A stretch of DNA of 64,000 bases from Candidatus Aenigmatarchaeota archaeon (GTDB lineage Archaea; Aenigmatarchaeota; Aenigmatarchaeia; Aenigmatarchaeales; JACQIB01): NCBI GenBank assembly GCA_016198755.1, contig JACQIB010000005.1:32001-96000 (forward strand), given 5' to 3'. Below the pieces are notes generated by a model. It had not been told where the DNA came from. It was given only the letters and a program-made list of their open reading frames with translations, and did not search any database. Of the stretch, positions 27,260 through 60,234 are shown in pieces (the first letter of the stretch is position 1; each line of letters starts with the position of its first letter). The position numbers were made by a program, and so were the translations under genes.

Positions 27260-27430
27260 TTAAACACCCAGAACAGCCCTTATAGGGTATAGCAGCCCTG
27301 AGGGGTTTGTTATTGTTGTTTTTTGGGAAAGTACAAAAGCCAAAATAAGTGCAACAATTATACCTAAAGCTGCCATAAGGAATATAAAATTCCATGCACC
27401 CTCATGCAAAGTTTCTATATCAAAAGCCAT
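27260..27430 (-). CDS. 56-aa single-TM microprotein (not in ORF track)
   Basis: MAFDIETLHEGAWNFIFLMAALGIIVALILAFVLSQ..VLGV*; TAATG overlap with the platform gene stop. Confidence 0.7.
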   Translation of the reverse strand: MAFDIETLHEGAWNFIFLMAALGIIVALILAFVLSQKTTITNPSGLLYPIRAVLGV

Positions 27431-29733: not shown

Positions 29734-29851
29734 TCTATCTCCCAGTTTAGAATAGACTTTCCCAATATAAAAAAGCCCTAATTCACTTTCTGCCGTTGAG
29801 GCAACATTATTTATTCATGCAAATCCATTATTTCCCAGGGAGCATGTTAAA

Positions 29852-31477: not shown

Positions 31478-33726
31478 GGAGCTTTCTTTGCCTGTTCTCT
31501 GAACCAGTTTTGCCATAAATTGAAAACCCTGTCAGCTTCTACAGAACCAACTTCCTGCCTTACTGTTTCTGAGAATCTGTGGAAAGCTTGGTTGCTTGCA
31601 ACCACTGTAGGGGCTTCCAAAAGGGCTGGCTTTCCTGTGGCTCCTGCCACGCGCACAATCTCACTCAAAACTTTTGCCCTTAACTGTATATTGTCCCAGA
31701 CAGAATCCCATCTGCCAGCCCATCCCGGCACTCTTTTTGCTATATCGTTCAGTATTTGGCTTTCTCCTGTTAACAGAGTATCTGTTGGTTTTAAAGAATC
31801 TGAGCGGGAGTTATATTCTAACAGATTTACAAATCCATGTTCTTCAGCAGGATCCTTTGTCCAGTGCTTTCTAACCTCAGTAACTTCTGTTACCCTTCTG
31901 AAACTTCTTAATCCATCAGCGCTGCGGATTTTGTTTGCAACAACAATTAAATCAGTGGCTTTAAAGCTTGTTGCAGGAACTCCTAAATCATTTACAACCC
32001 TGTCAAAAACCCCATAAGCGCTTTCCCCGTGTATAGTTCCGGCAACAACATTTGCTAAAGCTCCAATCCTCATTGCCTCGTACAGGGCTATTGCTTCTCT
32101 CGATCTTACCTCGCCAATAAACAGACAGGAATCTCCCATTCTAAGAGCTGTTCTGATAGCCTCCTCAGCAGAAAGCTCAAGCTCAACTTTTGTTATAACA
32201 CTTCTGGATTTCATTCTTTCAACATTATAGCTCAGCTTTCTCAGAGCCTCTATTGGAAGTTCATAAGTATCCTCAACTGTAATAATTCTGTAATAAGGGA
32301 TAACCTGCAACATTAAGGAACCGAGTAGAGAAGTTTTTCCAGAGCCTCTGGTTCCTGCAACTAACAGTGTTCTCCCGTATGTTGTGAAAAACCAGAGCAA
32401 ACCAGCTGTTAGTGGATCAAAGAAATGGTTTTGTATAAATAATGGAAATGTCCATGGTTCAAACCTGTGCCTTCTGAAAGCAAAAGCTAATCCTTCCGGT
32501 GAAACTCTTGGCCCAATAGCTGCTACTCTTGCAACACCTCCTGGAACAGATATTTCAGTGTCTAAAACAGGATTTGCCTCGTCTAATGGGCGGCCTGATA
32601 AAAGCTTAAATCTTGTTGACCATCTCTCCCCGTCCTCTTTTGTTGGAATAATATTTGTTTCACATTCATCAAATTCCTGATGTAGAATAAAAAGCGGTTG
32701 TTCACCCAATGGGCTGTTTATGTGTATATCCTGTATCTTTGAGTCTGCAAGCAAAAGCTCCAGTACCCCCAATCCTGTAGTATACCTAGTAAGTATTTGT
32801 GCTAACTCTTCAAGTTTTTCCTGTGAAAAGTTAAACCTGCGCAGGCTTGATATGTCCCTTAAAAGTTCTAGAGAAATAGAATGGAAAATATCCCTCATTT
32901 TCTCCTGATCTCTGACCTCAAACTCCTGCGGCTTTCTCTCCTCCAGAGCCTTCCTTGAATCATCCAGTACAGTATATTCTTCCTCACTCAAAACAAATTC
33001 GGGCGGAGTTATCTGGTAAATGGGCCTTACTTTTCCAGGAACCTTAAAAATCTCAACTCTTGTTCCCCCGACATTATACTTGTCTATTATTTCCCCGCCT
33101 GCCGGAGGTTTTAACACAAACTTTGTAAGCATAAAGTTAGGTCTTATTATTGGGTGGAACAGTTTTCTGTATACTGAACGATCCCCTATATGGTAGCCTG
33201 TTAAAAAGGGCTGGGCGTTTTTAATTAGGTCTGTTTTTCCCAAAATTGTTTTTATAGGCTCCAGAACAGCTGATAAATAATGTTCAAGCGCTTTTTTCTC
33301 CTTTTCATTTTCTGTTCTTTTCAAAATTATTTTTATATGCCTTATTTCCCTTTCGATATCTAAATATCCTCCTATAGGATCCCCCCTCAACTGGACTGAA
33401 ACAAGTGTATAAAGCCAGCTTTTCCATTTGTCGAAAAACTTGCCGGAAATGGATTTGTCCAGATTTTCATCTGATATAATTTTTTCCTCCATTACGATCC
33501 TGTTTATTGAAGCTGCAATCTGAACAAGCATTTTTGTCTGCTCTGGACCATACTCATTTTCCCTCGTTTCTGCCATTACAACGCTTGTTACTTTTCTCTC
33601 TGAAAGCAGCTTATCTACTACCCGTGCCATGCAAACATCAAAGTCTTCTATGCTGGAGCCAAACAATGCTCCGGAGCAGTTTATCTTCATCCTCCCATCC
33701 TTCAGTTCTGTTACCTCATAAACCAA
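31474..33726 (-). CDS. Type II/IV secretion ATPase (VirB11/TadA family)
   Basis: Walker A GTRGSGKT, ITVEDTYEL, ALRMGDSCLFIGEVRS, GTIHG; TTG start at 33726 after a GGGGGAG SD. Confidence 0.93.
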   Translation of the reverse strand: MVYEVTELKDGRMKINCSGALFGSSIEDFDVCMARVVDKLLSERKVTSVVMAETRENEYGPEQTKMLVQIAASINRIVMEEKIISDENLDKSISGKFFDKWKSWLYTLVSVQLRGDPIGGYLDIEREIRHIKIILKRTENEKEKKALEHYLSAVLEPIKTILGKTDLIKNAQPFLTGYHIGDRSVYRKLFHPIIRPNFMLTKFVLKPPAGGEIIDKYNVGGTRVEIFKVPGKVRPIYQITPPEFVLSEEEYTVLDDSRKALEERKPQEFEVRDQEKMRDIFHSISLELLRDISSLRRFNFSQEKLEELAQILTRYTTGLGVLELLLADSKIQDIHINSPLGEQPLFILHQEFDECETNIIPTKEDGERWSTRFKLLSGRPLDEANPVLDTEISVPGGVARVAAIGPRVSPEGLAFAFRRHRFEPWTFPLFIQNHFFDPLTAGLLWFFTTYGRTLLVAGTRGSGKTSLLGSLMLQVIPYYRIITVEDTYELPIEALRKLSYNVERMKSRSVITKVELELSAEEAIRTALRMGDSCLFIGEVRSREAIALYEAMRIGALANVVAGTIHGESAYGVFDRVVNDLGVPATSFKATDLIVVANKIRSADGLRSFRRVTEVTEVRKHWTKDPAEEHGFVNLLEYNSRSDSLKPTDTLLTGESQILNDIAKRVPGWAGRWDSVWDNIQLRAKVLSEIVRVAGATGKPALLEAPTVVASNQAFHRFSETVRQEVGSVEADRVFNLWQNWFREQAKKAP

Positions 33727-33800
33727 GCCAAACTCCCCCCTTCTTTTATATATATAGGACAATAAAACTATATTTATCTTTACAGATAAAGGTTTTCCAA

Positions 33801-34142
33801 ATGCCAGAAGTGAATCTTTCAACAGTGCTGAACGAGGCTTTTAGGAGGCTTAATGAAGCTTCCAGAAGATTGAGAGCTTCTGAAGAGAGGTATGATGTTC
33901 TTGAAACAAGGCTGGAAGGGCTGCAAAATACAATGCTTAAAATCAGCGATGAGCTTTCAGGGAAGATAGAGAAAAGTTCAGGGGAACAGAAGGATTTTGA
34001 AGCAAGGTTAGTTAGGATAGAAGCAGATCTTACAAAAATTGGGCAGGCTATGGAAAAGAGCGCAAAATCCTCTGATTTGGAGGAGTTAAAGAATCTTGTG
34101 GAGCTTTATTCCCCGTTTAAAGAAAAGAGAAAGAGTGATTGA
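33801..34142 (+). CDS. Small coiled-coil protein
   Basis: MPEVNL..RRLRASEERYD..LEELKNLVELYSP; start moved to ATG 33801. Confidence 0.7.
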   Translation: MPEVNLSTVLNEAFRRLNEASRRLRASEERYDVLETRLEGLQNTMLKISDELSGKIEKSSGEQKDFEARLVRIEADLTKIGQAMEKSAKSSDLEELKNLVELYSPFKEKRKSD

Positions 34143-34143
34143 A

Positions 34144-34791
34144 ATGGCAGAGAAAAGAGTTTTCATACCAATTGATCTGGCTAAAAAACTGGCTGGGGAA
34201 GGGAAAAATGAGGGGGATATTATTGAGGAATTAAAGAAAAGGGGATTTACACCCTTCCAGATTGACAATGCTCTGAAAGCAGCGCTGAAAGATGCTGTTG
34301 TTCCAAAAAGGCCTTATGTTTCAACCTTACCCCCGCCTCAGGAAAGTATTCCAATGGCTGAATCTGAAACACCTGTGAACGTTGCAGGCGTTGAAAAGCC
34401 TTCTGAAGGCTATCCTCCAGAGAAGATTTTAATTCCTGAAAAGCTCCAGCCATTAGCTCCACCTGGGGAAAGGCCTCCTGCAATGGACGAGACAAAGCCC
34501 AGCGCGGGCGAAGTAACAGTAGAGGAACTTGTAGAGTCTGTTGTTGAGGAGAGATGGCAGGGAATGGCTGAAAAAATCGGTGCTTTTTTGAACAAGGAAG
34601 AATCTATAGCTTCTGAGTTAAAGTCCCTTAGGGAAAAAATAGAGGATGTTTCATCAGCAGAAAAGGCAACAGATTCTACTCTTTCACAGCAGATAGACCA
34701 GTTTTCCTCAGACCATGGGAAACTAGAAACCCGCCTAAAAGCTCTTGAAAAGGCTTTTAAAGAATTTGCAGAATGGTCAAGGAAGAAATAA
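34144..34791 (+). CDS. Hypothetical protein (helical head, Pro-rich linker, coiled coil)
   Basis: DIIEELKKRGFTPFQIDNAL, VEELVESVVEERW, RLKALEKAFK. Confidence 0.7.
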   Translation: MAEKRVFIPIDLAKKLAGEGKNEGDIIEELKKRGFTPFQIDNALKAALKDAVVPKRPYVSTLPPPQESIPMAESETPVNVAGVEKPSEGYPPEKILIPEKLQPLAPPGERPPAMDETKPSAGEVTVEELVESVVEERWQGMAEKIGAFLNKEESIASELKSLREKIEDVSSAEKATDSTLSQQIDQFSSDHGKLETRLKALEKAFKEFAEWSRKK

Positions 34792-35313
34792 CTACTGACG
34801 CTGCTGTGGGGGCCCTTCCTGTTTCTCCTTTCCTTCCATTACCATCCATATTATAGCAACTATTATTACAATGAAGAAGAATAATGTTACATTTGCCTGC
34901 CCAGAAATATCTATTTGAGGGAATCCAATAAGCTGTAGCCCGCCTGCTCCAACGAAAACAAGCACTGCTATTATCACAAGAGCTGCAGCAAAATATACTT
35001 CGTACTTTTTAATCAGCGTCCCGCCCTTTCCAATTCCAGCTATTTCTAAAAATACCAACAAAATGAGTATTCCCAATACAACCATTACAAGAGCTGAAGA
35101 TAGTTTTGAAAGGAAGCTAATTATTTCTGTGGGAGCTGAAAAAATAACCAAAAACCCTACAACTATAGAGATTATTGCACGTGCAGCATTTGATTGCGGA
35201 AGCTTTACTTGATGTAAAACTCCGTAAACTATTGCAAAGCTCAAAAGCCAGAGCAGTATCTCTGGAAACCCTAAATTTTGTAATGTTGATAAAAATTCAG
35301 CCATTTTTTCCAC
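34792..35313 (-). CDS. Polytopic membrane protein, paralog 1
   Basis: LLWLLSFAIVYGVLH..KLPQSN; about 5 TM; probable ATG at 35304. Confidence 0.75.
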   Translation of the reverse strand: MEKMAEFLSTLQNLGFPEILLWLLSFAIVYGVLHQVKLPQSNAARAIISIVVGFLVIFSAPTEIISFLSKLSSALVMVVLGILILLVFLEIAGIGKGGTLIKKYEVYFAAALVIIAVLVFVGAGGLQLIGFPQIDISGQANVTLFFFIVIIVAIIWMVMEGKEKQEGPPQQRQ

Positions 35314-35316
35314 CTA

Positions 35317-35838
35317 TTATTTTTTATCCCCGCCTGGCATACCTTCTTTGTACATAAACCAGAAGGCAACCGCGATTATTATTGCGAAAATTACTATCGC
35401 AACAAGTGTATCAGATATTTCTGGAACAGAGATATTTATAACACTCAACCCGCCTGCTCCAATGAAAACAGAGAGAAGAATAAGCAAAATAATGCCTCCG
35501 AAGAACTTTGGATGTGCCATGAAAATATGGGTTCCGCCTGTTTTAACCTGTCCTATCTCAAGGAAGATTACAGCAACTAACAGTCCAACAGCAATCAATA
35601 CTCCAGCTACCACAAGGTTCTGGAGGAAAGCTACAGCTGGGGAAGCTGCTGATGCTAAAAGAACAAGGAAAGCAGCTGAAAGTGCAATTACCCCTTTTGC
35701 AGTGTTTGACTGGGGTATTTTTGCATGGTGTAACATCCCATAAACAACAGCTAAAGTAAGCAGCCAGAGTAAAACCAAAGGGGCTCCAGCATCCCTCAAA
35801 ATCACAATCATATCTTCAATTCCTGCCATTTTAACCAA
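35317..35838 (-). CDS. Polytopic membrane protein, paralog 2
   Basis: LLWLLTLAVVYGMLH..KIPQSN; probable ATG at 35829. Confidence 0.75.
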   Translation of the reverse strand: MVKMAGIEDMIVILRDAGAPLVLLWLLTLAVVYGMLHHAKIPQSNTAKGVIALSAAFLVLLASAASPAVAFLQNLVVAGVLIAVGLLVAVIFLEIGQVKTGGTHIFMAHPKFFGGIILLILLSVFIGAGGLSVINISVPEISDTLVAIVIFAIIIAVAFWFMYKEGMPGGDKK

Positions 35839-35867
35839 TCCTATTTTGCCTCCTATTTATTTAAAGC

Positions 35868-36353
35868 TCAGCCTGCCTGCTTGGGATCGTACTTATAGGC
35901 TATCCAAAAGATGAAAAATATTAAGACCAGCCCTATAATAAAGGCCAAGTTCTGCGAACCTATACTGGGTATGTTTGGAACAGCTGTTATTCCAACCATA
36001 AGGAAAGCAATGAAAGCCAACCCTACAACAATGAGGGTGAAAGGCTCAACCTTTTCTTTCCCAGTCTTATCCTTTCCTATCCCCAAAGCTTTTGCAAGGA
36101 AAATTATAAAGAAAAATACAACAAAAAACCATGCTAAACCCGGTAGGATTTGAAAGAAGGTTGTTGTAAAAGCACTGTTAGTAGCAGCAAAGAGAGCTAT
36201 TCCCAAAGCTACAACAGCATTAACAGGCTTGCTTTTTAAAACTCCAGCAGTCTGCAGAATCCCGAAAACAATTGCAAAAACAAGGACAAAAGGCAGGTAA
36301 AAGGTTTGGTCTAATAAATTAAATGGTAAGCTGAATTCTGCCATATAAACCAC
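35868..36353 (-). CDS. Polytopic membrane protein, paralog 3
   Basis: LPFVLVFAIVFGIL..VNAVVALGIAL; probable ATG at 36344. Confidence 0.75.
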   Translation of the reverse strand: MVYMAEFSLPFNLLDQTFYLPFVLVFAIVFGILQTAGVLKSKPVNAVVALGIALFAATNSAFTTTFFQILPGLAWFFVVFFFIIFLAKALGIGKDKTGKEKVEPFTLIVVGLAFIAFLMVGITAVPNIPSIGSQNLAFIIGLVLIFFIFWIAYKYDPKQAG

Positions 36354-36985
36354 TAAACAAATTCCTTTGACCTTTCTAGTTCGCGTATCTTAGCTTCTAA
36401 ATCAGCTTTCCTGAGCCTCCATGCATTTCTGGACTCTTCTAATGCCCTTCTCTCATCTCCGGCTTTAGTGGCCGAATAGGCTATATTCAACTCTCTCATC
36501 TTCTCATCACATACAATTATATCACTCTTCAGCCTGTCAATAACCTTTCCCTGCTCCCTTCTAGACCATATTTTTCCACCCGCTTTTTCCAGCAACATGC
36601 CTCTGGCCGCAGTTGTTGAAGGGTGTAATATCTTAGGTAGCATAAAAATAACCAAGCTGGTTCCAACAGTTACGAGCATCCAGAACTGGGCTGCCGAAGC
36701 TATAAATGCGTACCAACCATTCCAGATAACAAAAATGTAAAATGCAAAAGACATTAAGAGTCCCAGACCTTTATGACCGGTTCCTATTCTACTATATACT
36801 ATAAAGAGCCACAAAACTATGACTATATGTGGGAAGAAAAGCAAATTCAATAAATCTGATGTCATATCTCCGGTTGGCTGAATCTTTAGAATCCCGAAAA
36901 TTAACTCTGCAATATTGACTTGAGACAGGTCTGGAATGTTAATATTGGGGAGTGTTCCGGCCCCTATCTGAAAGAGTGGAAACAT
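36353..36985 (-). CDS. Membrane protein with C-terminal coiled coil
   Basis: LFFPHIVIVLWLF, 3 TM, charged helical tail. Confidence 0.7.
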   Translation of the reverse strand: MFPLFQIGAGTLPNINIPDLSQVNIAELIFGILKIQPTGDMTSDLLNLLFFPHIVIVLWLFIVYSRIGTGHKGLGLLMSFAFYIFVIWNGWYAFIASAAQFWMLVTVGTSLVIFMLPKILHPSTTAARGMLLEKAGGKIWSRREQGKVIDRLKSDIIVCDEKMRELNIAYSATKAGDERRALEESRNAWRLRKADLEAKIRELERSKEFV

Positions 36986-37015
36986 AAGAATTATTCATGA
37001 GCTATACTTATAAGC

Positions 37016-38458
37016 TTACTCTTTCTTTTCATCATCAACTGGTGTTGATGTAACCTCTATTGGCTTATCTTCTGCTTTATCTGGAAGAATATATGTGAAA
37101 GAATCTGCGGCACCCTTTCCACCCTGAACTTTTGTCTTGCCCCTGAAAAATTTCCCAATTGGAAGAGAACCAGGTTTTAGCAACTCGGCTCTTTTCTGTA
37201 TATAGGCAACAACAGTGGCATCTGTAAGCTCCCCGGCTTTTCTCGCCTCGTCCACATCCCTTCTTGCCTGATCAAGTGTTAATCTCAACCCTGCAACATC
37301 GCGACCAACTTCATCTAACATACCCTGCTTTACAGTAGCATCATTTTCTGCAGCCTCTGCCCTCTTTCTCAGCTCTTCAACCCCTATTAACAGGGTTTCC
37401 CTGTCTGAAGGTGCTGCCTGAGCTTGCTGTACTATTTTATCTGCCTCTGCTTTCACTCTTTCTGCTGCAGCTGCCCTTTCCTCTGCAGTTTTCATGGCAG
37501 CCTCTAAAACTTCCCTCCTCCGCTGCATATCACCCTCCTGATCAACAATTCTTGCTTCCCTCAGATTGAGCGCATCTGCTATTGCTTTGTATTTTACAGA
37601 ATTTTCATCTTCAACAGCCTTGAGACCAGCCTTTTCTTTCTCCAACGCCAGCCTTTGCTGTTCTATGTCTTTTTCTTTCCTGCTAACCATATCAAGTTCA
37701 GCTGCAAGAGCAGCAGTTCCAAGCTGCCTCTCCTTTTCTCTATCTTGATATGCTGTCTCTTCTGTCCTTAGCTTGTCATCCCTTTCTTTCAAACTATCTT
37801 CAAGCTCTCTGTATTGAACCCAGCGCTGCCCCAGTTCCTTTGAACTTGCATCTATATCTGTTCTCTTGGCTTCTAGAGCTCTTGAAGTAGACTCAAATGT
37901 TTCTTTTGCCTGCTTAAGTTCTTCTTTCTCCTTATCAATCCTAGCTCTTTCTTCATCTATTTGTGCCTTTTCCCCAGCCAGTTCATTGTCTTTCTCTTTC
38001 ATGCGCGCTGAGGTCTCTGTATTAAACCTTATGTGCTCCTGAAGTTCTGACATTTGTGAATCATACCTGACTTCCCTTCCTGTTAGATTTTCCTCCCTTG
38101 CTCTCAAATCCCTCTCAACACTTCTCAGATGATTCTGGGCTGCCTTTATCTCATCTTCTCTGGCTTTAACTCCATACCTGCTGTTCTTTAGAACATCTGC
38201 TTCCTCTCTGAGTGCAGCAGCATATTCCCTCAAAAACCAGGTTGTTGCATCCCTTTCTAAATTATTTCTTGTTTCTTGGGTACCTATGGGATCTGCAGTC
38301 CTGTAGTGAGAAATAATATCAGCAAACTGCCTATATGCCTTATCACTTAAGCCCTCTACTTCCGGAAGTCCAAATTTTGATGTTATATGAGTGTAAAGGC
38401 TTTGAGCTGCTTTTATGTCCTTTTCTGCTCCGGCTGCCCTTGGATCATCATTTATCAT
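37016..38458 (-). CDS. Orphan coiled-coil protein
   Basis: N-terminal module shared with the next ORF, then a long E/K/R/A coiled coil. Confidence 0.7.
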   Translation of the reverse strand: MINDDPRAAGAEKDIKAAQSLYTHITSKFGLPEVEGLSDKAYRQFADIISHYRTADPIGTQETRNNLERDATTWFLREYAAALREEADVLKNSRYGVKAREDEIKAAQNHLRSVERDLRAREENLTGREVRYDSQMSELQEHIRFNTETSARMKEKDNELAGEKAQIDEERARIDKEKEELKQAKETFESTSRALEAKRTDIDASSKELGQRWVQYRELEDSLKERDDKLRTEETAYQDREKERQLGTAALAAELDMVSRKEKDIEQQRLALEKEKAGLKAVEDENSVKYKAIADALNLREARIVDQEGDMQRRREVLEAAMKTAEERAAAAERVKAEADKIVQQAQAAPSDRETLLIGVEELRKRAEAAENDATVKQGMLDEVGRDVAGLRLTLDQARRDVDEARKAGELTDATVVAYIQKRAELLKPGSLPIGKFFRGKTKVQGGKGAADSFTYILPDKAEDKPIEVTSTPVDDEKKE

Positions 38459-38489
38459 ATTTTATCACTGAATATTAAAACTTAAATAC
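38456..38489 (-). promoter_or_regulatory. 34-bp promoter/start cassette, copy 1
   Basis: GTATTTAAGTTTTAATATTCAGTGATAAAATATG; 32/34 identical to 40078-40111. Confidence 0.8.
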
Positions 38490-40080
38490 TACCCCATCTT
38501 GCATATGGATCATCATCTGTTGGATTAATCTCTCCTGGTGTTCCACCGTTTCTTTTATGAGGCACTACAGCTGGTTCTACTTCCAACGCTGGCTCCTGTT
38601 CTAAAGGCGGAGCTGATGGTGGCTCAGCGAAAGATACTGGTGGATATGGAACCGATCTTGGTCTAAATGGAACTGGTCCTGGTCTCCATGCTGGAGGTGG
38701 CTGTATAGGCCGTGAACCCTCTTCTACTTGTCCAAATGAAGCAGGCAATGGCTCCTCTCTTCCAGCTCGTTCCCCTTCTCCATATGCCCATGGTGGAGGT
38801 GGTGGAACAGGAGATTGTACTGGTTCATCATACTGAGATGGTGAATATGGTGGTGGCTCTCGAGGAGGAGCGAGTAATGGAATTGACTGTACTGGAGATT
38901 TTGGAGTCTCCGGAGGCGGAGGAATTGGTGATTTGCGTCGTGATAAATAGTATCCTAAACCAGCTCTCATTCTCCCTGCCCCGACTCCCATTTTATATAG
39001 GCCATCACTTGCATACCTTCTAGCAGACCTTCTTGCTGATTTTGCAGGTTTATTTGCTTCTTTTACACTATTCGCTAAGCTCTTTATCCCATCTAAAGTG
39101 TCAATCTCTTTGTTAGCCCATTCTTTTATGCGTTCCAATCTATTATTGTCTCCATAAAAAATAACACGATATCCAGGAGGAGAATTTTTGGAGATATCCA
39201 TCGGAACTTTTCCTTTGAGACTCGAAATTGTTGTTACTGCCCTTTCATCAATTGCAGTGCTATTACGTATCAGGTGATTTACTGCAGCCTCTACTTGGGC
39301 TTTGCTGCCGTAAAATCTTCCTCTCATAACTCTGCCTGTTTTAAGAGGCTTTGTAAGATCTGTTTTTTTCATTAAATATTCAGCAGCTCCGGATTTTGGT
39401 ATTAGAATAGCTGACCCGTCACTTCCGTAGTATGCGTTTGCTTCCCTACCTGGTTGAAATTCATAAGTAACTTTTTCTTTCTTAGGCTTTTGTGTTTTTC
39501 CAGGTTTAATTACTATAACAACCTCATCATCCGCATTTCCGGATTGAGGAATACTGTTACCTGACTCCCGTATATTAAATACCCCACCAATTGGAGTATA
39601 AGGCGATTCCCCTCTGAACCAACTTCTTGGTTTTCCGGTAGTAACTGGTGCTTGTCCGAAAGAAGATGGAACTGTTATGGGCGGAACTCCAGTAACCGGT
39701 TCATCTGAACCAGATGCACCGCTGGGTGAAAGATACCCAGGTCCTTTAACATCCGGAGTAGAAGAAGGTGGTGACGCTGTAGAACTTCCCCCAGCCCTCG
39801 ATTTGGCTGGATTATAAAAAGTATCCATAAACCAGTTGTATGCTGCATCAGCCTCTTCCCTTGAAATTTCTTTGAATCTTCCAGGATCTCCCATTACACG
39901 TGTGTCGACCCTTCTTACAGTAGATGATAATACAGCTAAAACGTCTTTCTCAGGTATTCCGTATTCTTTAACATCGCTCTCAAGAACTCCTGCCCTCCTT
40001 AATATGGATTTGTATAGAGTTCTGGCTCCCTGCATATCTGGACTTTCTGGAGGCGGTGTTGGTTTTTTGAATATTCCCAT
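38482..40080 (-). CDS. Orphan Pro-rich modular protein
   Basis: 532 aa; poly-Pro tracts; modules shared with both neighbours. Confidence 0.7.
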   Translation of the reverse strand: MGIFKKPTPPPESPDMQGARTLYKSILRRAGVLESDVKEYGIPEKDVLAVLSSTVRRVDTRVMGDPGRFKEISREEADAAYNWFMDTFYNPAKSRAGGSSTASPPSSTPDVKGPGYLSPSGASGSDEPVTGVPPITVPSSFGQAPVTTGKPRSWFRGESPYTPIGGVFNIRESGNSIPQSGNADDEVVIVIKPGKTQKPKKEKVTYEFQPGREANAYYGSDGSAILIPKSGAAEYLMKKTDLTKPLKTGRVMRGRFYGSKAQVEAAVNHLIRNSTAIDERAVTTISSLKGKVPMDISKNSPPGYRVIFYGDNNRLERIKEWANKEIDTLDGIKSLANSVKEANKPAKSARRSARRYASDGLYKMGVGAGRMRAGLGYYLSRRKSPIPPPPETPKSPVQSIPLLAPPREPPPYSPSQYDEPVQSPVPPPPPWAYGEGERAGREEPLPASFGQVEEGSRPIQPPPAWRPGPVPFRPRSVPYPPVSFAEPPSAPPLEQEPALEVEPAVVPHKRNGGTPGEINPTDDDPYARWGSI

Positions 40081-40111
40081 ATTTTATCACTGAATAGTAA
40101 ACCTTAAATAC
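40078..40111 (-). promoter_or_regulatory. 34-bp promoter/start cassette, copy 2
   Basis: GTATTTAAGGTTTACTATTCAGTGATAAAATATG. Confidence 0.8.
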
Positions 40112-41299
40112 CTATGGTTTCCCTCCTTCGTCATTATAAATAGTTTCCCAGTCAATTTCTGGTTTGGCATTCTTTTGAGGTGCGGACTTTTTTCTCCTGC
40201 CAAACAAAGTCCACTTTCTTTTGGGAGGTCCTTCTACTACTGTTATGCCTGATTGAGGAACTGGAACTGATACGGGATTAGAAGGTATTGTAGGTCCTAC
40301 AAGAGCTGTTAAACAACTTTGATAAAATTGTTCTGTCGGTCCCCTCAATTCAACATTATCACCCATACCAGCTAGGTCTCCTTTTGCCTTCAAAAGAGCA
40401 TTCATAATATTTCTTTGTTTATCAGTTACCCACAAAACAGCAGACTCCCCATCCCCATCTAAAGGAACTACACCTTTTATTTTAGAAACCATAACTGAAC
40501 CGGGTTTGTCTAAACTATATCTACCTTTCCTGAGTGTATCCAAAACACCGTCTGCATCTGTTTGTGTCATATTAATTAATCTTAATTGTTTTCCGGTATT
40601 TTGCCTTCTTAGATATTCCACTGCACCAGGTGTTAAATAAAGTTTAACTTCACCACCATCAAACCTTCTTATTTTTATTCCCGGCAGGCCTTCAGGAACC
40701 TCTTCATTATAGCCTACTCCGCCTTCTCCTGCAGATTCAACTCTTATTTGAATTGTTTTTACATTACTTTCTGCTCCATGTGAAGATGTTTCTGAACCTC
40801 CTTTAGTATCCTCATGAAATTCAGATGGAAGATTGTCGATCATGACAGTGTTCCAGTAAGCAGCAAATGATTTTGCATCTTCTCCACTAACCTCGTAATT
40901 GCCATTTCCAACATCTTTTACTGTTAATTTGAATCTCTTACCTAAACCTTCGCTATCAAAAACCTCTTTTCTTATCTTATCTAGATAGAATACACTTGAA
41001 TCAGTACGTTGTTTACTGCCCGGGAGCTCTGCTACACTTTGTCCAGTATCTTCGTAAACAGGATCAAGATCAGAATTAGTTGCCTTTTTCCATGCATCTC
41101 TTATTCTTTCAGCATCTTGACCTTCTACTAAGTATCCAGTATTATCCTTTGTGGGGGTTATTGTAATATCTAGGATTCTATCCCAAGCTCTTCTTTTGAT
41201 TTCTGTAAGATATGTTGCGTTTATAACATACCCCTTTACATTCCTGTTTTCTGGACTCTGAGCTTTTGGTTCTTTAGAATCTTCTGCTGCACCTTCCAT
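40112..41299 (-). CDS. Orphan modular protein with internal duplication
   Basis: YL..I....(W/F)D...Y.V.G.DA.....W present twice; GAVEYL/KGVVPLD module. Confidence 0.7.
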   Translation of the reverse strand: MEGAAEDSKEPKAQSPENRNVKGYVINATYLTEIKRRAWDRILDITITPTKDNTGYLVEGQDAERIRDAWKKATNSDLDPVYEDTGQSVAELPGSKQRTDSSVFYLDKIRKEVFDSEGLGKRFKLTVKDVGNGNYEVSGEDAKSFAAYWNTVMIDNLPSEFHEDTKGGSETSSHGAESNVKTIQIRVESAGEGGVGYNEEVPEGLPGIKIRRFDGGEVKLYLTPGAVEYLRRQNTGKQLRLINMTQTDADGVLDTLRKGRYSLDKPGSVMVSKIKGVVPLDGDGESAVLWVTDKQRNIMNALLKAKGDLAGMGDNVELRGPTEQFYQSCLTALVGPTIPSNPVSVPVPQSGITVVEGPPKRKWTLFGRRKKSAPQKNAKPEIDWETIYNDEGGKP

Positions 41300-41302
41300 A
41301 TT

Positions 41303-41998
41303 TTATCCCCCAAATCTTTTTGCACGTGCATCAGTGTCACTCAGTATTCTTTCTATTCTCCTATCAAGAGCTACGTCTACACTTGCACCTGCATATGCAA
41401 CCATTCCCCTGTAAAGTGGACTCTGAGCTATCTTTAATCCTTCCATTACACCGGCGAATGTAGCGCCATCATATCCCCTATATTCTACTTGTGCATTTCC
41501 AACAATTACATTATGTGGTGTTCCAGGAGGAAATGCCTGATAAAAGCCTATACCTTCCTGTAATCCAGCAATACGCTTACCTGCATCCTCTTTTACTCTA
41601 ATTAGAGCTTGTTTCTTTACTTCTTTTAATGTATCTGGTTTTTCTATGTTTCTACTCGCTATAAGTGCCGCATCAGATGATGCAGTCAACTCAGACGCAG
41701 GCTTAATTCCCTGTGTAGTAGCTGTATAAATTGCATCTGCTTTCTGATAACCTCCACCGAAAGCTATGCCTCTAAAAAAGCGGTATACATCTCTCAAACC
41801 TATTACACCTAGCAATGGTCCAATTCCAAGATCCTCCCAATCCATCCTTTCTGCAATTGTTAATGTTGCATCGGGCTGCCTCTCCTTTCTTCCTCCGGCA
41901 GTTAACACTGTCTGCTCTGCTCCTAGAATTACATCTATAGGATCATTCTTATCGGGAGGAAGTGACTCCGGTACAAGAACTGTTGTTGTTGGTGCCAT
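41303..41998 (-). CDS. Hypothetical protein
   Basis: 231 aa; preceded by GTGATAAAATATG. Confidence 0.65.
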   Translation of the reverse strand: MAPTTTVLVPESLPPDKNDPIDVILGAEQTVLTAGGRKERQPDATLTIAERMDWEDLGIGPLLGVIGLRDVYRFFRGIAFGGGYQKADAIYTATTQGIKPASELTASSDAALIASRNIEKPDTLKEVKKQALIRVKEDAGKRIAGLQEGIGFYQAFPPGTPHNVIVGNAQVEYRGYDGATFAGVMEGLKIAQSPLYRGMVAYAGASVDVALDRRIERILSDTDARAKRFGG

Positions 41999-42094
41999 AT
42001 TTTATCACTCATTATTTGGCAGCAAAACAATAAATCCTGAGTGTGAAATTGTTTTACTACCTAATAGTAGTATGTATTAACTAGTATATAAAGC

Positions 42095-43297
42095 CTACTG
42101 TTCGGGTGTTCCACCATTTCCCTTTTGCAACTCTTCCATCATTCTGCGCCTTATTTTGCTTAGTTCCACATCATCTGAATCAGATGGCTCTACTGGAGGG
42201 CTGGATTTTACTTTCTCTGCTACTCTCGCGGTTTCTGAGTCCGGAGACCTTTCACCAAAACCTAAATCCGCCAATACTCTCTTTTTGTTTTCATCGTCTT
42301 GAGATGGCTCAACAGGAACACCACTTTTTATTTCTTCTAAAACTCTATCTGTTTCTGGATCCATAGCCCTTCCGCTTGGTACTCCAGTACCCTGGCCTGC
42401 TTCTGGTTTATCATTCCGCACAGGTGGAACATATCCTGGAACTGGTTTATCAGAAGGCGGCTCGTATGTTGTAGAGACATGAGCTCCTGCAGCATAATCA
42501 CCTAAACCTGGAGTTTTAGCAGGTTCATCACTCTCAAACTCTGCTCCACAACATCCGCACCTAGCATCAGCAGCGCCAACATCTGCACCACACGATGGGC
42601 ACTCGAAAGCTTCTAATTTTTCGTCTTCTCCTTTTGGAGAATCTTCTCCATCTCCGCGATCAAGTCTTGTGAGTCTTGGACTACCGAAACCTTTATCCTT
42701 GGAGATTTTTAACCTGTCTAAAGCAACCCCTACAAGCATCTGGGCTTTTCTTAGATTATTTTCATAATGCAGATCTCCACTGCCCTTCCTCTCTGCTGCC
42801 TGTAAATGAAGCATTGCTGCAGTCACATCAGCCCCTACCTTCTCTGCAGCTTCTATATACCCCCTAACTCTTTCCATCTTAGGATCTAAAATAAGAACGC
42901 GACTTGACCTGTATGGAGGTGCGGGTGGAACTGGCGCCCTTCTTGGCGGTGATGGAGCAGGTCGGGAAGATGAAGGATTAGGATTATGACCTGCCGGAGG
43001 AGTTGGAATTCTCCTTGGAGGTTCATAACCAGAAGATTCTACTGTAGCTGGAGGAAGCGTTATAGGAAGTGCAGTGGGTTTCCTGCTTATTGCTATAGTC
43101 AGCCTATCCTGAATATCTTCTATTCTTGAATCAACTCCAAATTTGCCTTTATAGGGAGTTAAAGCATTCAGAGCAAGTTGGTAAGCTTGTGCAGCTGAAC
43201 CATAATCATGTAACCTTGCTAATCTGTCTCCTGCTCTTACGTAAGCATCTGCTCCAGCAACTTCCTTTCTCTTTTTAGTAATAAGGAGTAATTTCAT
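42095..43297 (-). CDS. Mosaic protein: TPR/MIT-like head, Pro-rich linker, zinc ribbon
   Basis: DYGSAAQAYQLAL; FECPSCGADVGAADARCGCCGAEF. Confidence 0.7.
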   Translation of the reverse strand: MKLLLITKKRKEVAGADAYVRAGDRLARLHDYGSAAQAYQLALNALTPYKGKFGVDSRIEDIQDRLTIAISRKPTALPITLPPATVESSGYEPPRRIPTPPAGHNPNPSSSRPAPSPPRRAPVPPAPPYRSSRVLILDPKMERVRGYIEAAEKVGADVTAAMLHLQAAERKGSGDLHYENNLRKAQMLVGVALDRLKISKDKGFGSPRLTRLDRGDGEDSPKGEDEKLEAFECPSCGADVGAADARCGCCGAEFESDEPAKTPGLGDYAAGAHVSTTYEPPSDKPVPGYVPPVRNDKPEAGQGTGVPSGRAMDPETDRVLEEIKSGVPVEPSQDDENKKRVLADLGFGERSPDSETARVAEKVKSSPPVEPSDSDDVELSKIRRRMMEELQKGNGGTPEQ

Positions 43298-43330
43298 TCT
43301 TATTACTGTATGGTAGTTAATATTTAAAGC

Positions 43331-43582
43331 TTACTGTTCTGGGCGCTGGAAGACTCCAAGCTGTGTGCAAATCTCCAGTATAGCCCAAGCCCAGATTACT
43401 GCCTCAAAGGCTCTAACTAAGTCACCGGAGCCTAGAAAGTGCTTTGAGTCGGAAATATAGGCTTTCATGTTTTCCATCATTTCTTCTCCTTTTTCGTCTG
43501 AGAGTTGTATTTGGTCTATAAATGGCTCTATTTTATCCAGCCACTTTTCAACTTCTTTCTCTGTCAGTTTCAACTTGTCCAT
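43331..43582 (-). CDS. DUF357 domain protein
   Basis: AYISDSKHFL..GDLVRAFEAVIWAWAILE. Confidence 0.9.
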   Translation of the reverse strand: MDKLKLTEKEVEKWLDKIEPFIDQIQLSDEKGEEMMENMKAYISDSKHFLGSGDLVRAFEAVIWAWAILEICTQLGVFQRPEQ

Positions 43583-43633: not shown

Positions 43634-44407
43634 TTATTGGCTGCGGGTGGCCTTGAGTTTTTCCAATATAGATTTTTTGACAGACTTGAACTCCGGCACC
43701 ATTGGTATAAGTGGGTCTAGTTCAGAGTTCCAGATAGCCTCTTTAAGGTTCAGGTGCTTTTCAAATTTACCTGGGCTCCAGCTTTCCCTATAATATTCCA
43801 GTTTTTTATCTGTCAATTCCTTATCAAAGGAAACTCCTTTCTCAAGCAGGAACCAAAGATCATAAACATCCCTGGCTTTTGTTCGGCTCATTATAGCCCT
43901 GACCTTTTCAGCCAGTATTTCCCTTTCGTCCATTACTAGGACATCAAACTCCGGTAGTTCCTCAATAAATCTCCCAACGGTTTTAATTAGTGGTTTCAAG
44001 GTTACATTTTCCCTAAAGCTAAAGTCTATGATAAAATTGCAAATGCTGTGCCTTACACCAAGATATAACGGTCCAGTTATTCTAAGAATAATTTTTAAAC
44101 CGTTTTCATACTCCTTTGTCTCAATTTCGTACTCTATACCAAATCTTTTCAGTCCAGACTCTAATTTTTTAGTGTCTACCTTGCCTACGCATGTAAAATC
44201 CAAATCTTCTGAAAACCTGTTCAGACCATAGCATTTTTTTAAGGCAGTGCCACCCTTAAAAATAAGGGTGTTTCCATACTCTTGGTAGAGAATAAACAAT
44301 ATTATATTCTGGATATAGTCCTTTTCTGCTTGGCCTAGATTTTTTAGACCTGCAACTTTTGCATAGTTTTTTAATTCTTCCTTTTGTATCATATCTTTAG
44401 CCTCCAT
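43634..44407 (-). CDS. AbiEii-family nucleotidyltransferase toxin
   Basis: EKDYIQ, FKGGTALKKCYGLNRFSEDLDF, EILAEKVRA, ARDVYDLW. Confidence 0.92.
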   Translation of the reverse strand: MEAKDMIQKEELKNYAKVAGLKNLGQAEKDYIQNIILFILYQEYGNTLIFKGGTALKKCYGLNRFSEDLDFTCVGKVDTKKLESGLKRFGIEYEIETKEYENGLKIILRITGPLYLGVRHSICNFIIDFSFRENVTLKPLIKTVGRFIEELPEFDVLVMDEREILAEKVRAIMSRTKARDVYDLWFLLEKGVSFDKELTDKKLEYYRESWSPGKFEKHLNLKEAIWNSELDPLIPMVPEFKSVKKSILEKLKATRSQ

Positions 44408-45075
44408 TTACTATATGTTTTTTCCCATTTCTTTGAGAATGGATTTAAAACGACATAGTTTTTGTCTAAGATAAAGTTGTGAGATATATCCACGCTCTTA
44501 ATAGTTTCCAGTAAATAACCGACTCGCTTAATAACATTGTTATTGCCTGTGATCTGGAGGTATTTAACAACTTTATCCTCATCTATTTTTGCGTTCTCAA
44601 ATATTTTTATTATTTCGTCAAAATTTCCACATTCCTTTGGTCTCAGAAAACAGTCTATTAAAAGCTTTTCATCCTCTGCAATAAAAATATCCCCCTCGTC
44701 CGTTCTTATTTTTTTATAGCCAAAAACTGGCTTAATGGAAACAAATTTTATATCGTACCCTTCAAACTTTATTGGGACGGCTCTTCTTGTGGTCGCGACC
44801 TGAACAGTGTTAAGAATCTGTTCTGTGTAACCAAGAAAGTAGGATGCTGACCAGAACGAGATATAGGAAGGATAAACTATGTTGCTAGCTATCAAGAAAA
44901 TGCTGTCCTTTGTGGTGTAAGCGTTTCTTTTTATCTTTTTTACTAACCCTCTTTGTTTTAACCTGTTCAAAATCAACTTTGCATATATTCCCTTACAATA
45001 CCCAATACGCTCTATATCTTGTATCTTAAAGACCGCTTTAGCTCTAAGCTTATCTAAAAGTTCTATCGCTTTCAT
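44389..45075 (-). CDS. AbiEi-family antitoxin / transcriptional regulator
   Basis: N-terminal wHTH, PSYISFWSA, EKLLID, KRVGYLLE. Confidence 0.88.
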   Translation of the reverse strand: MKAIELLDKLRAKAVFKIQDIERIGYCKGIYAKLILNRLKQRGLVKKIKRNAYTTKDSIFLIASNIVYPSYISFWSASYFLGYTEQILNTVQVATTRRAVPIKFEGYDIKFVSIKPVFGYKKIRTDEGDIFIAEDEKLLIDCFLRPKECGNFDEIIKIFENAKIDEDKVVKYLQITGNNNVIKRVGYLLETIKSVDISHNFILDKNYVVLNPFSKKWEKTYSKWRLKI

Positions 45076-45216: not shown

Positions 45217-45942
45217 CTATTTGCTGTAAGTTTCCAGAGCTTCCTTTTCCTTAAAGTGGAGCTTTCCTGGCAAAATTAGAACTGCAGGGTATGGGAACCT
45301 TTTCTCCAGCAGTTCTTTTACAGGCGCGTAAACTATAGTTTGCTCTGGGGTTCCTAAAGCTGCTGCAGCAACAAATTTTTCTGCTGGCTTTGTTATTTTG
45401 GCTTTTAACAAAAACTTTAAAGCATCCACAGGGCCCATGTATAGGTTTACTTCAGAGTCTAAGTCTAAAAGCAATAGTGTATGTAAACCGAGCTTTTTGT
45501 TGCCTTCTATTGTTTCTTTCACAGCAGTTAGTTGGCCTGTAAATGGAATAGTAGCTGTGCGTCCGAACTTGTAGAGTTGGAGACCTGTTTCAGCTATTAC
45601 AGAAAAAATGCTTACAGAATGGAAAACCTTACAGGGAACAGACTGCTTTTTGCACTCAAGCAAAAGCTCCATATGGGTTGTGGCTGATAGAGGGTCTCCG
45701 ATTATCAGAACAGCAATATTTTTCTCCTTTGCTCTTTCAACTAGCAAGACAGAATCATCCTCCAAACCCTTCCTTTTAAGCAAAACAGGTTTTTTCCCCA
45801 TTGCCTTTTCTATATCAGCTGCAGAACCTTTCCAGAGGGAAGTATATTGTTCTATATACAGCTCATCAGCTGCTTTTCCAGCTTCTATTCCACCAACTGT
45901 TAAGTCTGCTGGGGAAAGGCCTATTCCAATAAGGTAGAGCAT
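45217..45942 (-). CDS. dph5: Diphthine synthase
   Basis: MLYLIGIGL, EQYTS, GDPLSATTH, GLQLYKFGRT, GLHTLLLLD, PGKLHFKEKEAL. Confidence 0.96.
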   Translation of the reverse strand: MLYLIGIGLSPADLTVGGIEAGKAADELYIEQYTSLWKGSAADIEKAMGKKPVLLKRKGLEDDSVLLVERAKEKNIAVLIIGDPLSATTHMELLLECKKQSVPCKVFHSVSIFSVIAETGLQLYKFGRTATIPFTGQLTAVKETIEGNKKLGLHTLLLLDLDSEVNLYMGPVDALKFLLKAKITKPAEKFVAAAALGTPEQTIVYAPVKELLEKRFPYPAVLILPGKLHFKEKEALETYSK

Positions 45943-45971: not shown

Positions 45972-46544
45972 CTATAACAGGGCCAGCACCCTTTTCCTTA
46001 AAATTGCTGGGTATGATTTCAGATAGTCATTAAGCTTTTCCCTGTCTATGCGCTTTCTGAACTCCCTTATTGTTTCCTTATCCAGATATTGGTTGAAATA
46101 GACAAAATCTATAAGTGTTTTTTCTATGTCAGAAACTGGAAAATAAAAATCCCCCTGTTTTATCATTTCAAAGCCAAACAGGTATTTTGGTTTTATCCTA
46201 TGCAGGAAAACCTTGTTTTCAAAAACCATTACTTTTCTGTGTTTAACCTTCTGGGCGGTAACTATAATTGTTACTGTTTCCTGCTCCCATAGATTATGTA
46301 TGCTAAGTGCCTCATTCAAACCTAGATAAGCTGGTCTGTAGCAAAACACAGCAAGTGTTGGATCATCTTGGAGGGAATAAAACCCTTTTTTAATTCTATT
46401 TAACTCCCCCCTCTTTATCATGTTATTTACTAGCAGATAACTATAATTTTTGTTCCTTACATCTATGTTTATGTCCCCGAGTGTGGCTACTGGAGTTTTT
46501 TTCAGAAATTCCCTTATTTGCTTTATGTATTTTATTCTGCCCAT
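45972..46544 (-). CDS. AbiEi-like antitoxin
   Basis: RIKKGFY, PAYLGL..ALSIHNLWEQ, VSDIEKTLID. Confidence 0.85.
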   Translation of the reverse strand: MGRIKYIKQIREFLKKTPVATLGDINIDVRNKNYSYLLVNNMIKRGELNRIKKGFYSLQDDPTLAVFCYRPAYLGLNEALSIHNLWEQETVTIIVTAQKVKHRKVMVFENKVFLHRIKPKYLFGFEMIKQGDFYFPVSDIEKTLIDFVYFNQYLDKETIREFRKRIDREKLNDYLKSYPAILRKRVLALL

Positions 46545-47179
46545 CTTTTAATACCCTCCAACATCTCGGACATTCTGGGAGTGACGCCAGAGAAAACCAA
46601 CTGCTCCAAGTTTTCCGGGTCCACGGGCTCTTTGAACCCCTTTATAAATTCCTTAAGGGAAGATTTCAGATTTCCGCCATTTGTAATCCTTAAAAGGAAA
46701 TATATATCATAGAGATCCCTTATTTTTCTTCTCTCCTTATAGGTTGCCAGTTTTTCTTTTAACAGCTCTTCTGGGGAGAGCATATTTATGTTGAGAAACG
46801 TCCCGTCTGAGAGCTCAAAAGGTTTTGTTACAAAGGTCTTTTTATTCTGAAAAACTGCTTCAAACCTTAGTATAATGCTGGAATAGGAAAATTTTGAGTA
46901 TATTGAACGGTGCTTTTCTCTAAATTTTATAGTTCCAAACCCCTTGTTCTCAAGGCTTTTTTGGAATTTAATTAAATCCTCAGAATTGCTTAAATCCTCA
47001 GGAAGGTAAACGTCTATATCCTCTGAAAATCTATTGCTTCCATAACATCTCCATATTGCAGTGCCTCCGTGCAGGACAGCTTTTGGAATAATTCTAAAAA
47101 GCTCAGAAACCATGATATCCTGAGCTAGAGCCAGCTCTTTTTGTCCCCGTTTTCTCAGCCTGCTCATAAGCGGCAACAT
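46532..47179 (-). CDS. AbiEii-family nucleotidyltransferase toxin
   Basis: LHGGTAIWRCYGSNRFSEDIDVY, EELLKEK, RDLYDIY. Confidence 0.9.
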   Translation of the reverse strand: MLPLMSRLRKRGQKELALAQDIMVSELFRIIPKAVLHGGTAIWRCYGSNRFSEDIDVYLPEDLSNSEDLIKFQKSLENKGFGTIKFREKHRSIYSKFSYSSIILRFEAVFQNKKTFVTKPFELSDGTFLNINMLSPEELLKEKLATYKERRKIRDLYDIYFLLRITNGGNLKSSLKEFIKGFKEPVDPENLEQLVFSGVTPRMSEMLEGIKRWAE

Positions 47180-60143: not shown

Positions 60144-60234
60144 TGGTAGCGGAGGCTTGATTTGAACAAGCGACCTTCGGGTGTTTCAAGTTTTTTATGA
60201 GCCCGACGAGCACTCCAGGCTGCTCCACTCCGCT
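60144..60234 (-). tRNA. Initiator tRNA-Met(CAT) with a 13-nt intron at 37/38 (60183-60195), CCA encoded
   Basis: A1:U72 acceptor AGCGGAG/CTCCGCT, anticodon stem TCGGG/CCCGA, CTCATA^AAAAACTTGAAAC^A, T loop TTCAAAT. Confidence 0.93.

Follow-up and report, generated by a model that had tools for sequence, protein, structure and literature searches.

Archaeal type IV pilus loci contain linked genes for uncharacterised cytoplasmic proteins, among them coiled-coil (arCOG07564) and double-Zn-ribbon (arCOG06883) proteins, which the article text of Makarova, Koonin and Albers (2016; PMC4858521) treats as auxiliary parts thought to be structural or regulatory. Here we describe an array of five genes that invites comparison with these loci: it lies on the minus strand at 37016–43297 of a 64,000-nt stretch of DNA (hereafter, the window) from a Candidatus Aenigmatarchaeota archaeon (GenBank assembly GCA_016198755.1, contig JACQIB010000005.1, positions 32,001 to 96,000), whose 0.89-Mb genome (G000 in our numbering) is held in 6 contigs and is 89% complete. 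A first-pass annotation, made from the DNA letters alone, had described the products as fast-evolving cytoplasmic orphans of low complexity, resembling secreted effectors or scaffolds. Like the proteins described in the text of PMC4858521, to which we liken them by description only, they are signal-less proteins, with coiled-coil-like or Zn-ribbon-like members, encoded beside PilB/PilC-type genes; unlike them, they are five in number and occupy a slot that turns over between genera, and the conserved genes closest to them form a cluster for polytopic membrane proteins, which was not found in that text. A full-text literature search found no description of this cluster, although the supplementary tables of PMC4858521, which lie outside such a search, may list related neighbourhoods. 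Accessory cytoplasmic proteins of pilus loci and fast-evolving host-interface loci are already known; the slot, its flanks, its motif and the membrane cluster are undescribed.

The main finding is that the five proteins belong to a positionally fixed, hypervariable, class-wide set that grows by local duplication and keeps only short motifs and bulk properties. They fill what we call the slot, the interval between a DUF357 gene (43331–43582, minus strand; Pfam PF04010, E 9e-14) and the gene for a polytopic membrane protein, M210 (36353–36985, minus strand); DUF357 is described in the article text of PMC6393860 as a widespread archaeal family, arCOG01224. We compared the slot in 19 order-level and 12 class-level loci. 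The DUF357 gene stands beside it in 12 of the former and 5 of the latter, and slot length could be measured only where the fetched piece held both flanks, as it did in 12 of the 19 order-level loci. Against 6345 bp in the window, the slots of two genomes of the same family span 6265 bp (G005, 4 open reading frames [ORFs]) and 7444 bp (G002, 6 ORFs), while in ten order-level loci of other families the interval amounts to 634–1846 bp with one to three ORFs, and in the five class-level loci to 1338–3343 bp. Further slots hold at least five ORFs (G006) and three (G004), and those of the window's own family contain 3–6 charged, partly helical ORFs. The early prediction of variable content between fixed flanks therefore holds in 12 loci at order level and in 5 at class level. 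Among the 1221 ORFs of the 19 order-level loci, no match to any array protein was found at E ≤1, and the flank genes match strongly. Even within a genus, slot proteins are only 22%–30% (G002 and G006) or 24% (G001 and G005) identical, compared with 59%–83% for the flanking membrane proteins M161 and M173 and 37%–57% for M210.

The ORF list confirms that the array is co-oriented, lies where it was first placed and stands directly upstream of four membrane-protein genes. In order of transcription it consists of E400 (42095–43297; 400 aa, Pro/Ala/Gly-rich), D231 (41303–41998; 231 aa, Ala/Gly-rich, assigned to no family), C395 (40112–41299; 395 aa), B532 (38482–40080; 532 aa, 14% Pro, pI 9.4) and A480 (37016–38458; 480 aa, Glu/Ala/Arg/Lys-rich and Pro/Gly-poor), all on the minus strand. 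The genes are separated by 3–96 bp, with the D231 stop 3 nt from the C395 start, and the array begins 33 bp after the DUF357 gene and ends 30 bp before M210. Long reading frames, GC content of 0.52–0.60, 0.39–0.53 and 0.22–0.34 at codon positions 1, 2 and 3, Shine-Dalgarno-like leaders and a database relative of C395 establish the five ORFs as real genes. The segment 34500–44500 is moreover covered by contigs from four runs of one groundwater study, possibly the source of the assembly, with 0 differences. Hydropathy places the five proteins in the cytoplasm, in agreement with the first-pass statement that they lack a clear signal peptide: by this crude measure, which stands in for a dedicated signal-peptide predictor, no 19-residue window in any of them reaches a Kyte-Doolittle mean of 1.6, and neither a hydrophobic N-terminus nor a transmembrane-like segment appears. 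Their composition is also as first described, being charged and, in two proteins, rich in proline (14% and 11%).

Local growth of the array can be read from the modules that its members share. The clearest case is a segment common to B532 (residues 207–295; 39196–39462, minus strand) and C395 (residues 203–281; 40457–40693, minus strand), which BLASTP aligns at E 8e-4 with 25% identity over 89 aa, and whose Smith-Waterman score of 67 was reached by 0 of 500 shuffles; through this pair, the claim of module sharing within the array is borne out. An internal duplication claimed for C395, a small strand/helix module with copies at residues 30–85 (41045–41212, minus strand) and 105–165 (40805–40987, minus strand), is weakly confirmed: its score was reached by 1 of 500 shuffles, and an AlphaFold2 (AF2) model shows a similar order of strands and helices in both copies, albeit at low pLDDT, but BLASTP of 80-aa pieces returned no match. 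The N-terminal module said to unite A480 and B532 is not significant as protein (BLASTP E 3.5; 25 of 500 shuffles reach its score), yet the leaders of the two genes, the 34 nt ending in each ATG, agree at 32 of 34 positions. The A480 leader (38456–38489, minus strand) comprises a TATA-like box and a Shine-Dalgarno-like GTGAT and ends in the ATG, and the matching 34-nt leader of B532 lies at 40078–40111 (minus strand). Since the 17-mer that closes both leaders at the ATG occurs at no third site in the genome, A480 and B532 have a promoter and leader in common that either were duplicated or are under strong constraint. Taken with paralogy inside the slots of G002 (E 1e-10) and G015, the B532/C395 module, the C395 repeat and these leaders indicate that the slot grows in place.

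Start contexts are likewise alike across the array, in that four of the five ORFs begin in a GATAAAATATG context with a Shine-Dalgarno-like GTGAT or GGGAT, and four of the five genomic copies of this 11-mer fall within it. Elsewhere, the GTGATAAAATATG leader is found once only, ahead of a 199-aa ORF (G000:C2:180154-180763) that belongs to no known family; a second pair of PilC/PilB-like genes (C2:188292-192075) lies at a distance of 8 kb from this ORF. TATA-like boxes (TTTAAATA, ATTTAAG or CTTATAAG) occur approximately 25–32 nt before the starts of E400, B532, A480, M210 and the membrane-protein gene M173a, in the intervals 36986–37015, 38459–38481, 40081–40111, 43298–43330 and 35839–35867; their position right behind the preceding stop codons suggests separate short-leader transcripts as opposed to one long operon.

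What the slot proteins of different genera have in common is confined to short motifs and bulk properties. Of the 1749 genomic ORFs with 80 aa or more, exactly two contain the pentapeptide NGGTP, and both belong to the array (B532, 38536–38550; E400, 42104–42118; minus strand); it lies 22 and 7 residues from the C-terminus, so that its recurrence near two C-termini, noticed in the first-pass annotation, is real and non-random. B532 carries a C-terminal RNGGTPGE, and the E400 tail ends in NGGTP. In its looser form, NG[GE][TE], the motif is found in 4 of the 37 slot proteins from 16 genomes (B532, E400, G002_556 and G006_523), always near the C-terminus, and is followed by PGE in all of these except E400. 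Short basic aromatic motifs, which had also been said to recur, are enriched (3 in the array against 0.24 expected from 44 matches in 367,972 aa), and the one in C395 is kept in its only relative, but the pattern was written post hoc. Basic patches lie near the C-termini of C395 (W-x-L-F-G-R-R-K-K) and A480 (K-F-F-R-G-K), and B532 carries a Gly-rich K-M-G-V-G-A-G patch together with a Pro-rich tail.

Candidates for wider families within the slot were tried and rejected. D231 is the positional counterpart of the first slot gene of the relatives (approximately 150–335 aa), but a common family of such genes did not emerge, as their alignment shows weak motifs only, and hidden Markov model (HMM) and jackhmmer searches join small groups; D231 was not among the top 15 of the 1749 ORFs scored with an HMM of 13 first-slot proteins. 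Orthology of B532 with G002_556 and G006_523 was likewise dropped: profiles miss it, and full-length Smith-Waterman scores were reached by 30 of 300 shuffles in one comparison and by 1 of 300 in the other, where the Pro-rich tails account for the better score. All that favours it is a Gly-rich patch, a Pro tail and an NGG motif in collinear order.

Against the databases, the description of the proteins as orphans or near-orphans holds across 5.8 and 1.8 billion proteins. The large searches covered B532, E400, D231 and C395, that is, all but A480. B532 found only itself among 7999 scored candidates, and E400 only itself among 8000, out of 5.8e9 proteins, the candidates scored being the 8000 with the most shared words; D231 found only itself among 781 candidates of 5.8 billion. 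HMMER with C395 against 1.84e9 representative proteins returned its own fragment and a single 215-aa relative, P0004, which is 61% identical to C395 residues 280–359 and keeps the basic patch. Two metagenome scans with P0004 and with the C395 and P0004 alignment confirmed no further relative, and neither C395 nor D231 has a match in 40 relatives. Searches of all five proteins against Pfam, NCBIfam, PHROG and PADLOC gave no family beyond weak coiled-coil and PHROG matches.

Individual proteins nonetheless show recognizable architecture. A480 is helical or coiled-coil-like over residues 75–425 or so, and matches the coiled-coil parts of SMC, ASRP and HmpF (20–21 bits or so against cut-offs of 200–567) and TPR_MLP1_2 (16.5 bits against 36), all far below cut-off; its only PADLOC match is to the coiled-coil-type JetC (E 0.002). 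HmpF (NF038350), a cytoplasmic coiled coil that acts on a pilus motor and regulates cyanobacterial type IV pili, is a suggestive name among these, but the A480 match (E 1.9e-4, 20 bits) scores ten-fold under the 200-bit cut-off and is that of a generic coiled coil. E400 combines a helical, possibly TPR-like, N-terminal part with a zinc-ribbon-like site (CxxC-x10-CxCC at residues 228–251 or so, 42545–42616 in the window) and a disordered tail. Its Pfam scores for DZR (PF12773, 10.9 bits) and TPR_2 (PF07719, 10.8 bits) fall short of the 27-bit cut-off, at E approximately 0.5, and its Atlas neighbours are archaeal Zn-ribbon/TPR clusters (Zn_Ribbon_1/TPR_2, 0.86–0.87), which we treat as a lead only. 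Atlas models of C395 and E400 are poor (pLDDT 0.45 and 0.53), and all of their structure neighbours score TM <0.31. By description, E400 resembles Helicobacter pylori HP0958, which the text of PMC4858521 gives as a coiled-coil hairpin with a Zn ribbon that is needed for flagellum formation: both join a helical part to a Zn ribbon or, in E400, a Zn-ribbon-like site in a cytoplasmic protein linked with a filament machine, but E400 has a long disordered tail as well.

The constant companion of the slot is its downstream membrane cluster. After M210 come M161 (35868–36353), M173a (35317–35838) and M173b (34792–35313), polytopic membrane proteins that are paralogues of one another, all on the minus strand; two conserved coiled-coil genes, cc211p and cc231p (33507–34791, plus strand; cc211p probably starts inside its open frame), separate them from the 782-aa FlaI/PilB-like secretion ATPase of a type IV pilus-like locus (31474–33822, minus strand; PF00437, E 1.3e-17), which matches NCBIfam FlaI at E 9.8e-38, under the cut-off. 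Within the order, 38 of 41 genomes carry the M173 family; across the phylum, its profile finds a match in 152 of 201. The cluster has no known family in Pfam or NCBIfam, and M173a has no convincing fold match. The AF2 model of M173a is helical and confident (pLDDT 84), but Foldseek against the Protein Data Bank (PDB) found nothing at E ≤0.001, and the best wide VIA-align hits, at Z 7.1, are generic helical hairpins; the cc231p and M173 profiles matched PDB sequences only as coiled-coil noise or at E ≥0.07. An M173a match is present in 37 relatives, 22 of which have an orthologue of the ATPase within approximately 4 kb of the M173 cluster (G025 is counted through a second paralogue). Among the distant loci, 7 of 12 keep M173, cc231p, cc211p and the ATPase in order, with PilC after the ATPase in 5 of these. 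Linkage to PilB/PilC-type genes was found overall, but not in G002 or in families f2 and f4. The early claim that the slot is linked to a pilus locus thus stands by way of the membrane cluster in those 22 relatives, but fails for G002, whose ATPase is so distant from its slot that the constant partner must be the membrane-gene cluster and not the pilus genes. The pilus genes are a frequent, not a universal, neighbour of the slot.

A class-wide super-locus can be recognized at 27430–36985 in the window and in loci L043, L048–L050 and L052–L054, where M210, M161 and the M173 paralogues are followed by cc231p and cc211p on the other strand, the FlaI/PilB-like ATPase and, in the window and five of these seven loci, PilC. 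The membrane cluster and its two coiled-coil partners, which are undescribed, may be missing parts of the archaeal pilus machine.

The reading that we favour, though with somewhat less than even confidence, is that the slot proteins are fast-evolving peripheral scaffold or adaptor proteins of this membrane and pilus machine. It draws on co-orientation with M210, on the architecture of helices, linkers and motifs, and on the pilus-linked cytoplasmic proteins described in the text of PMC4858521. Under such a reading, the hypervariable slot at the head of a class-conserved cluster (DUF357, slot, M210, M161 and M173 paralogues) would supply proteins assembled from stretches of helix or coiled coil, small modules of strands and helices, linkers rich in proline and a handful of short linear motifs, namely the C-terminal RNGG(T/E)...PGE and basic aromatic patches, which would arise and change through in-place duplication and module exchange. 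Their place would be at the cytoplasmic side of the membrane complex and of the pilus machine, where the helical parts would oligomerise, the linkers would set spacing, and docking, either to a conserved partner or to the membrane, would fall to the short motifs and basic patches. Constraint would then act only on motifs and bulk properties, so that the remaining sequence could drift beyond recognition between genera. By way of analogy, the proteins HMW1-3 and P65 of Mycoplasma pneumoniae form the cytoplasmic cytoskeleton of its attachment organelle, combine coiled coils with acidic, Pro-rich low-complexity segments, and are encoded near adhesion genes. The slot proteins are similarly cytoplasmic, signal-less and of low complexity, in a reduced genome; unlike them, the Mycoplasma proteins are bacterial and share no homology, so that a cytoskeletal role here is an analogy only. 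We infer that the slot proteins may have a part in attachment, whose machinery they would tune.

Several observations weigh against a scaffold role. The role is drawn from neighbourhood and composition, with binding to membrane or pilus proteins as an inferred step. The groups of slot proteins that BLASTP, jackhmmer and profile searches bring together are all small and never include the window's five, and common descent of the slot genes is accordingly assumed from position and weak motifs only. In the 15 of the 37 relatives other than those 22, the ATPase is on another contig or far away (some of these being contig breaks), and in one of them, G036, no ATPase orthologue was found; G002 has the largest slot, and there 51 kb separate slot and ATPase. 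A crude count of heptads in A480 does not exceed that of shuffles, and the AF2 model of C395, made from a two-row alignment, has a mean pLDDT of 39, too poor for a fold search. Finally, the GC content at third codon positions (GC3) of B532, C395 and E400, at 0.22–0.26, falls within the lowest 0%–2% of values for the 414 ORFs that encode 250 aa or more (median 0.344), and the AbiEi/AbiEii pair adjoining the slot gives a strong PADLOC match.

These last two points lead to the alternative that the interval from DUF357 and the diphthine synthase gene to M210 is an insertion hot spot, filled with genes that are unrelated, perhaps foreign or selfish, and functionally unconnected with the membrane or pilus genes. 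Extreme GC3 in three genes, two AbiEi/AbiEii pairs immediately upstream, content that differs among genera without detectable homology, and a weak PHROG match of E400 (E 0.0022; the other four have none) speak for such cargo. The toxin-antitoxin pairs lie at 43634–45075 and 45972–47179, on either side of the diphthine synthase gene (45217–45942), and at the AbiE position of G004 there is a RelE-like pair, named by eye only; the occurrence of such modules at one place in both genomes indicates that the neighbourhood collects them. But slot-gene GC3 is below that of the genome's own membrane-gene flanks in G000, G002, G005 and G006 alike, which points to a common evolutionary regime and not to separate imports, and paralogy, together with the leaders in common, suggests that the slot expanded where it stands. 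The genes have the orientation of M210 and are closely packed with it; the ORF lists show no integrase, tRNA target or flanking repeat (no repeat-specific search was made); PADLOC assigns none of the five proteins to a defence system; and tblastn with C395 and D231, two of the five, against 50,697 phage records, as well as the C395 alignment against IMG/VR, gave no match. We regard insertion cargo as an unlikely account of the slot.

The idea that the proteins are translocated substrates or effectors, exported or passed to a host through an apparatus of the membrane proteins and the ATPase, we also consider improbable. The C-terminal RNGG(T/E)...PGE or the basic tails would be its recognition signal, and rapid change would reflect an arms race with the host. 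C-terminal signals are indeed used by type VII substrates and type IV effectors, and type VII (ESX) substrates (PE/PPE, LXG) are variable, signal-less, helical or Pro-rich proteins with a C-terminal motif, encoded beside membrane components and an ATPase. The slot proteins resemble these in being variable and signal-less, in carrying, in some cases, a C-terminal motif and in adjoining membrane genes and an ATPase; unlike in ESX, that ATPase is of the PilB/FlaI family and not FtsK/EccC, no WXG or YxxxD/E motif was noticed (no search aimed at one was made), and export is an analogy only. In favour of translocation are this juxtaposition of signal-less, fast-evolving, low-complexity proteins with conserved membrane proteins and a secretion-family ATPase, the motif common to two array members and to positional counterparts in another genus, the small genome (0.89 Mb), and the raised non-synonymous single-nucleotide polymorphism densities that the text of PMC6142677 describes for Nanoarchaeota pilus and surface genes. 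Against it, no export signal of known kind was recognized in the proteins by hydropathy, the motif is present in only 2 of the 5, and an architecture of coiled coils and linkers is more typical of scaffolds. Five T2SSE-family matches, three of them over the cut-off, were found in the genome, but a search for VirB4/CagE (PF03135), the translocation system looked for, gave no match in this 89% complete assembly. To our knowledge, moreover, there is no route through a PilB/PilC machine for cytoplasmic proteins. Of the two labels first proposed, scaffold fits the context better; effector is a guess that our data neither support nor exclude, as nothing shows export and no signal was recognized.

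A more specific form of export, and one we hold to be more doubtful still, would be an undescribed contact-dependent system in which the class-wide M210, M161 and M173 form the route, the FlaI-like ATPase provides the power, and the signal-less, fast-evolving slot proteins are cargo for a host, addressed by the C-terminal RNGG(T/E)...PGE motif. If true, DPANN archaea would thereby have their first proposed system of effector delivery.

There is little to recommend a role for the proteins in binding nucleic acids, for example with E400 as a zinc-ribbon factor and the basic-tailed proteins controlling the adjacent operon. The CxxC...CxCC site of E400, the pI of 9.4 of B532, basic patches in three proteins, and a resemblance, by eye only, of the B532/C395 module to small strand-helix DNA-binding domains are compatible with regulators, but no helix-turn-helix (HTH), AbrB or other DNA-binding family was matched at E 0.01 or better, the five, being large, mostly acidic and Pro-rich, do not look like regulators, and the locus already has a dedicated HTH protein (29852–31477). 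That the five are non-functional or decaying ORFs of a fast-mutating intergenic region, as a lack of homologues, low GC3 and a look-up that listed no RNA run for this stretch might suggest, is scarcely credible in view of five stop-free frames of 231–532 codons in 41% GC DNA with strong codon-position periodicity, conserved Shine-Dalgarno-like leaders, a C395 C-terminal part that is 61% identical in its relative, and the 6.3 kb of a 0.89-Mb genome spent here.

Very small, host-dependent archaea retain few genes, yet, whichever function is served, 0.7% of this genome (6.3 kb of 0.89 Mb) is spent on five proteins that change faster than searches follow, at a fixed position beside a conserved membrane and pilus gene set that three in four of the phylum's sampled genomes contain, and such hot spots are the usual place of host-specific adaptation. 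The fixed flanks, DUF357 and M210, offer a handle by which the variable cassette can be extracted from related metagenomes, and the common C-terminal motif could serve as bait for a partner protein.

Several further features of the window and its relatives deserve mention. Orthologues of the ATPase are matched in 2–3 separate pieces in one long frame (1248–1783 aa) in G005 (C1:22287-26096), G008 (C35:18850-24120), G023, G024, G027 and G032, a pattern suggestive of one or two inteins inserted near query residues 520–575. The HTH protein noted above (plus strand), which in the window stands between ATPase and PilC genes that are directly adjacent in distant relatives, has 541 aa with several HTH motifs and a C-terminal DUF6015, a term found in no paper by full-text literature search. 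Lastly, a tRNA-Asp was called at 60144–60234 (minus strand) that, at 91 nt, is longer than standard and may carry an intron.

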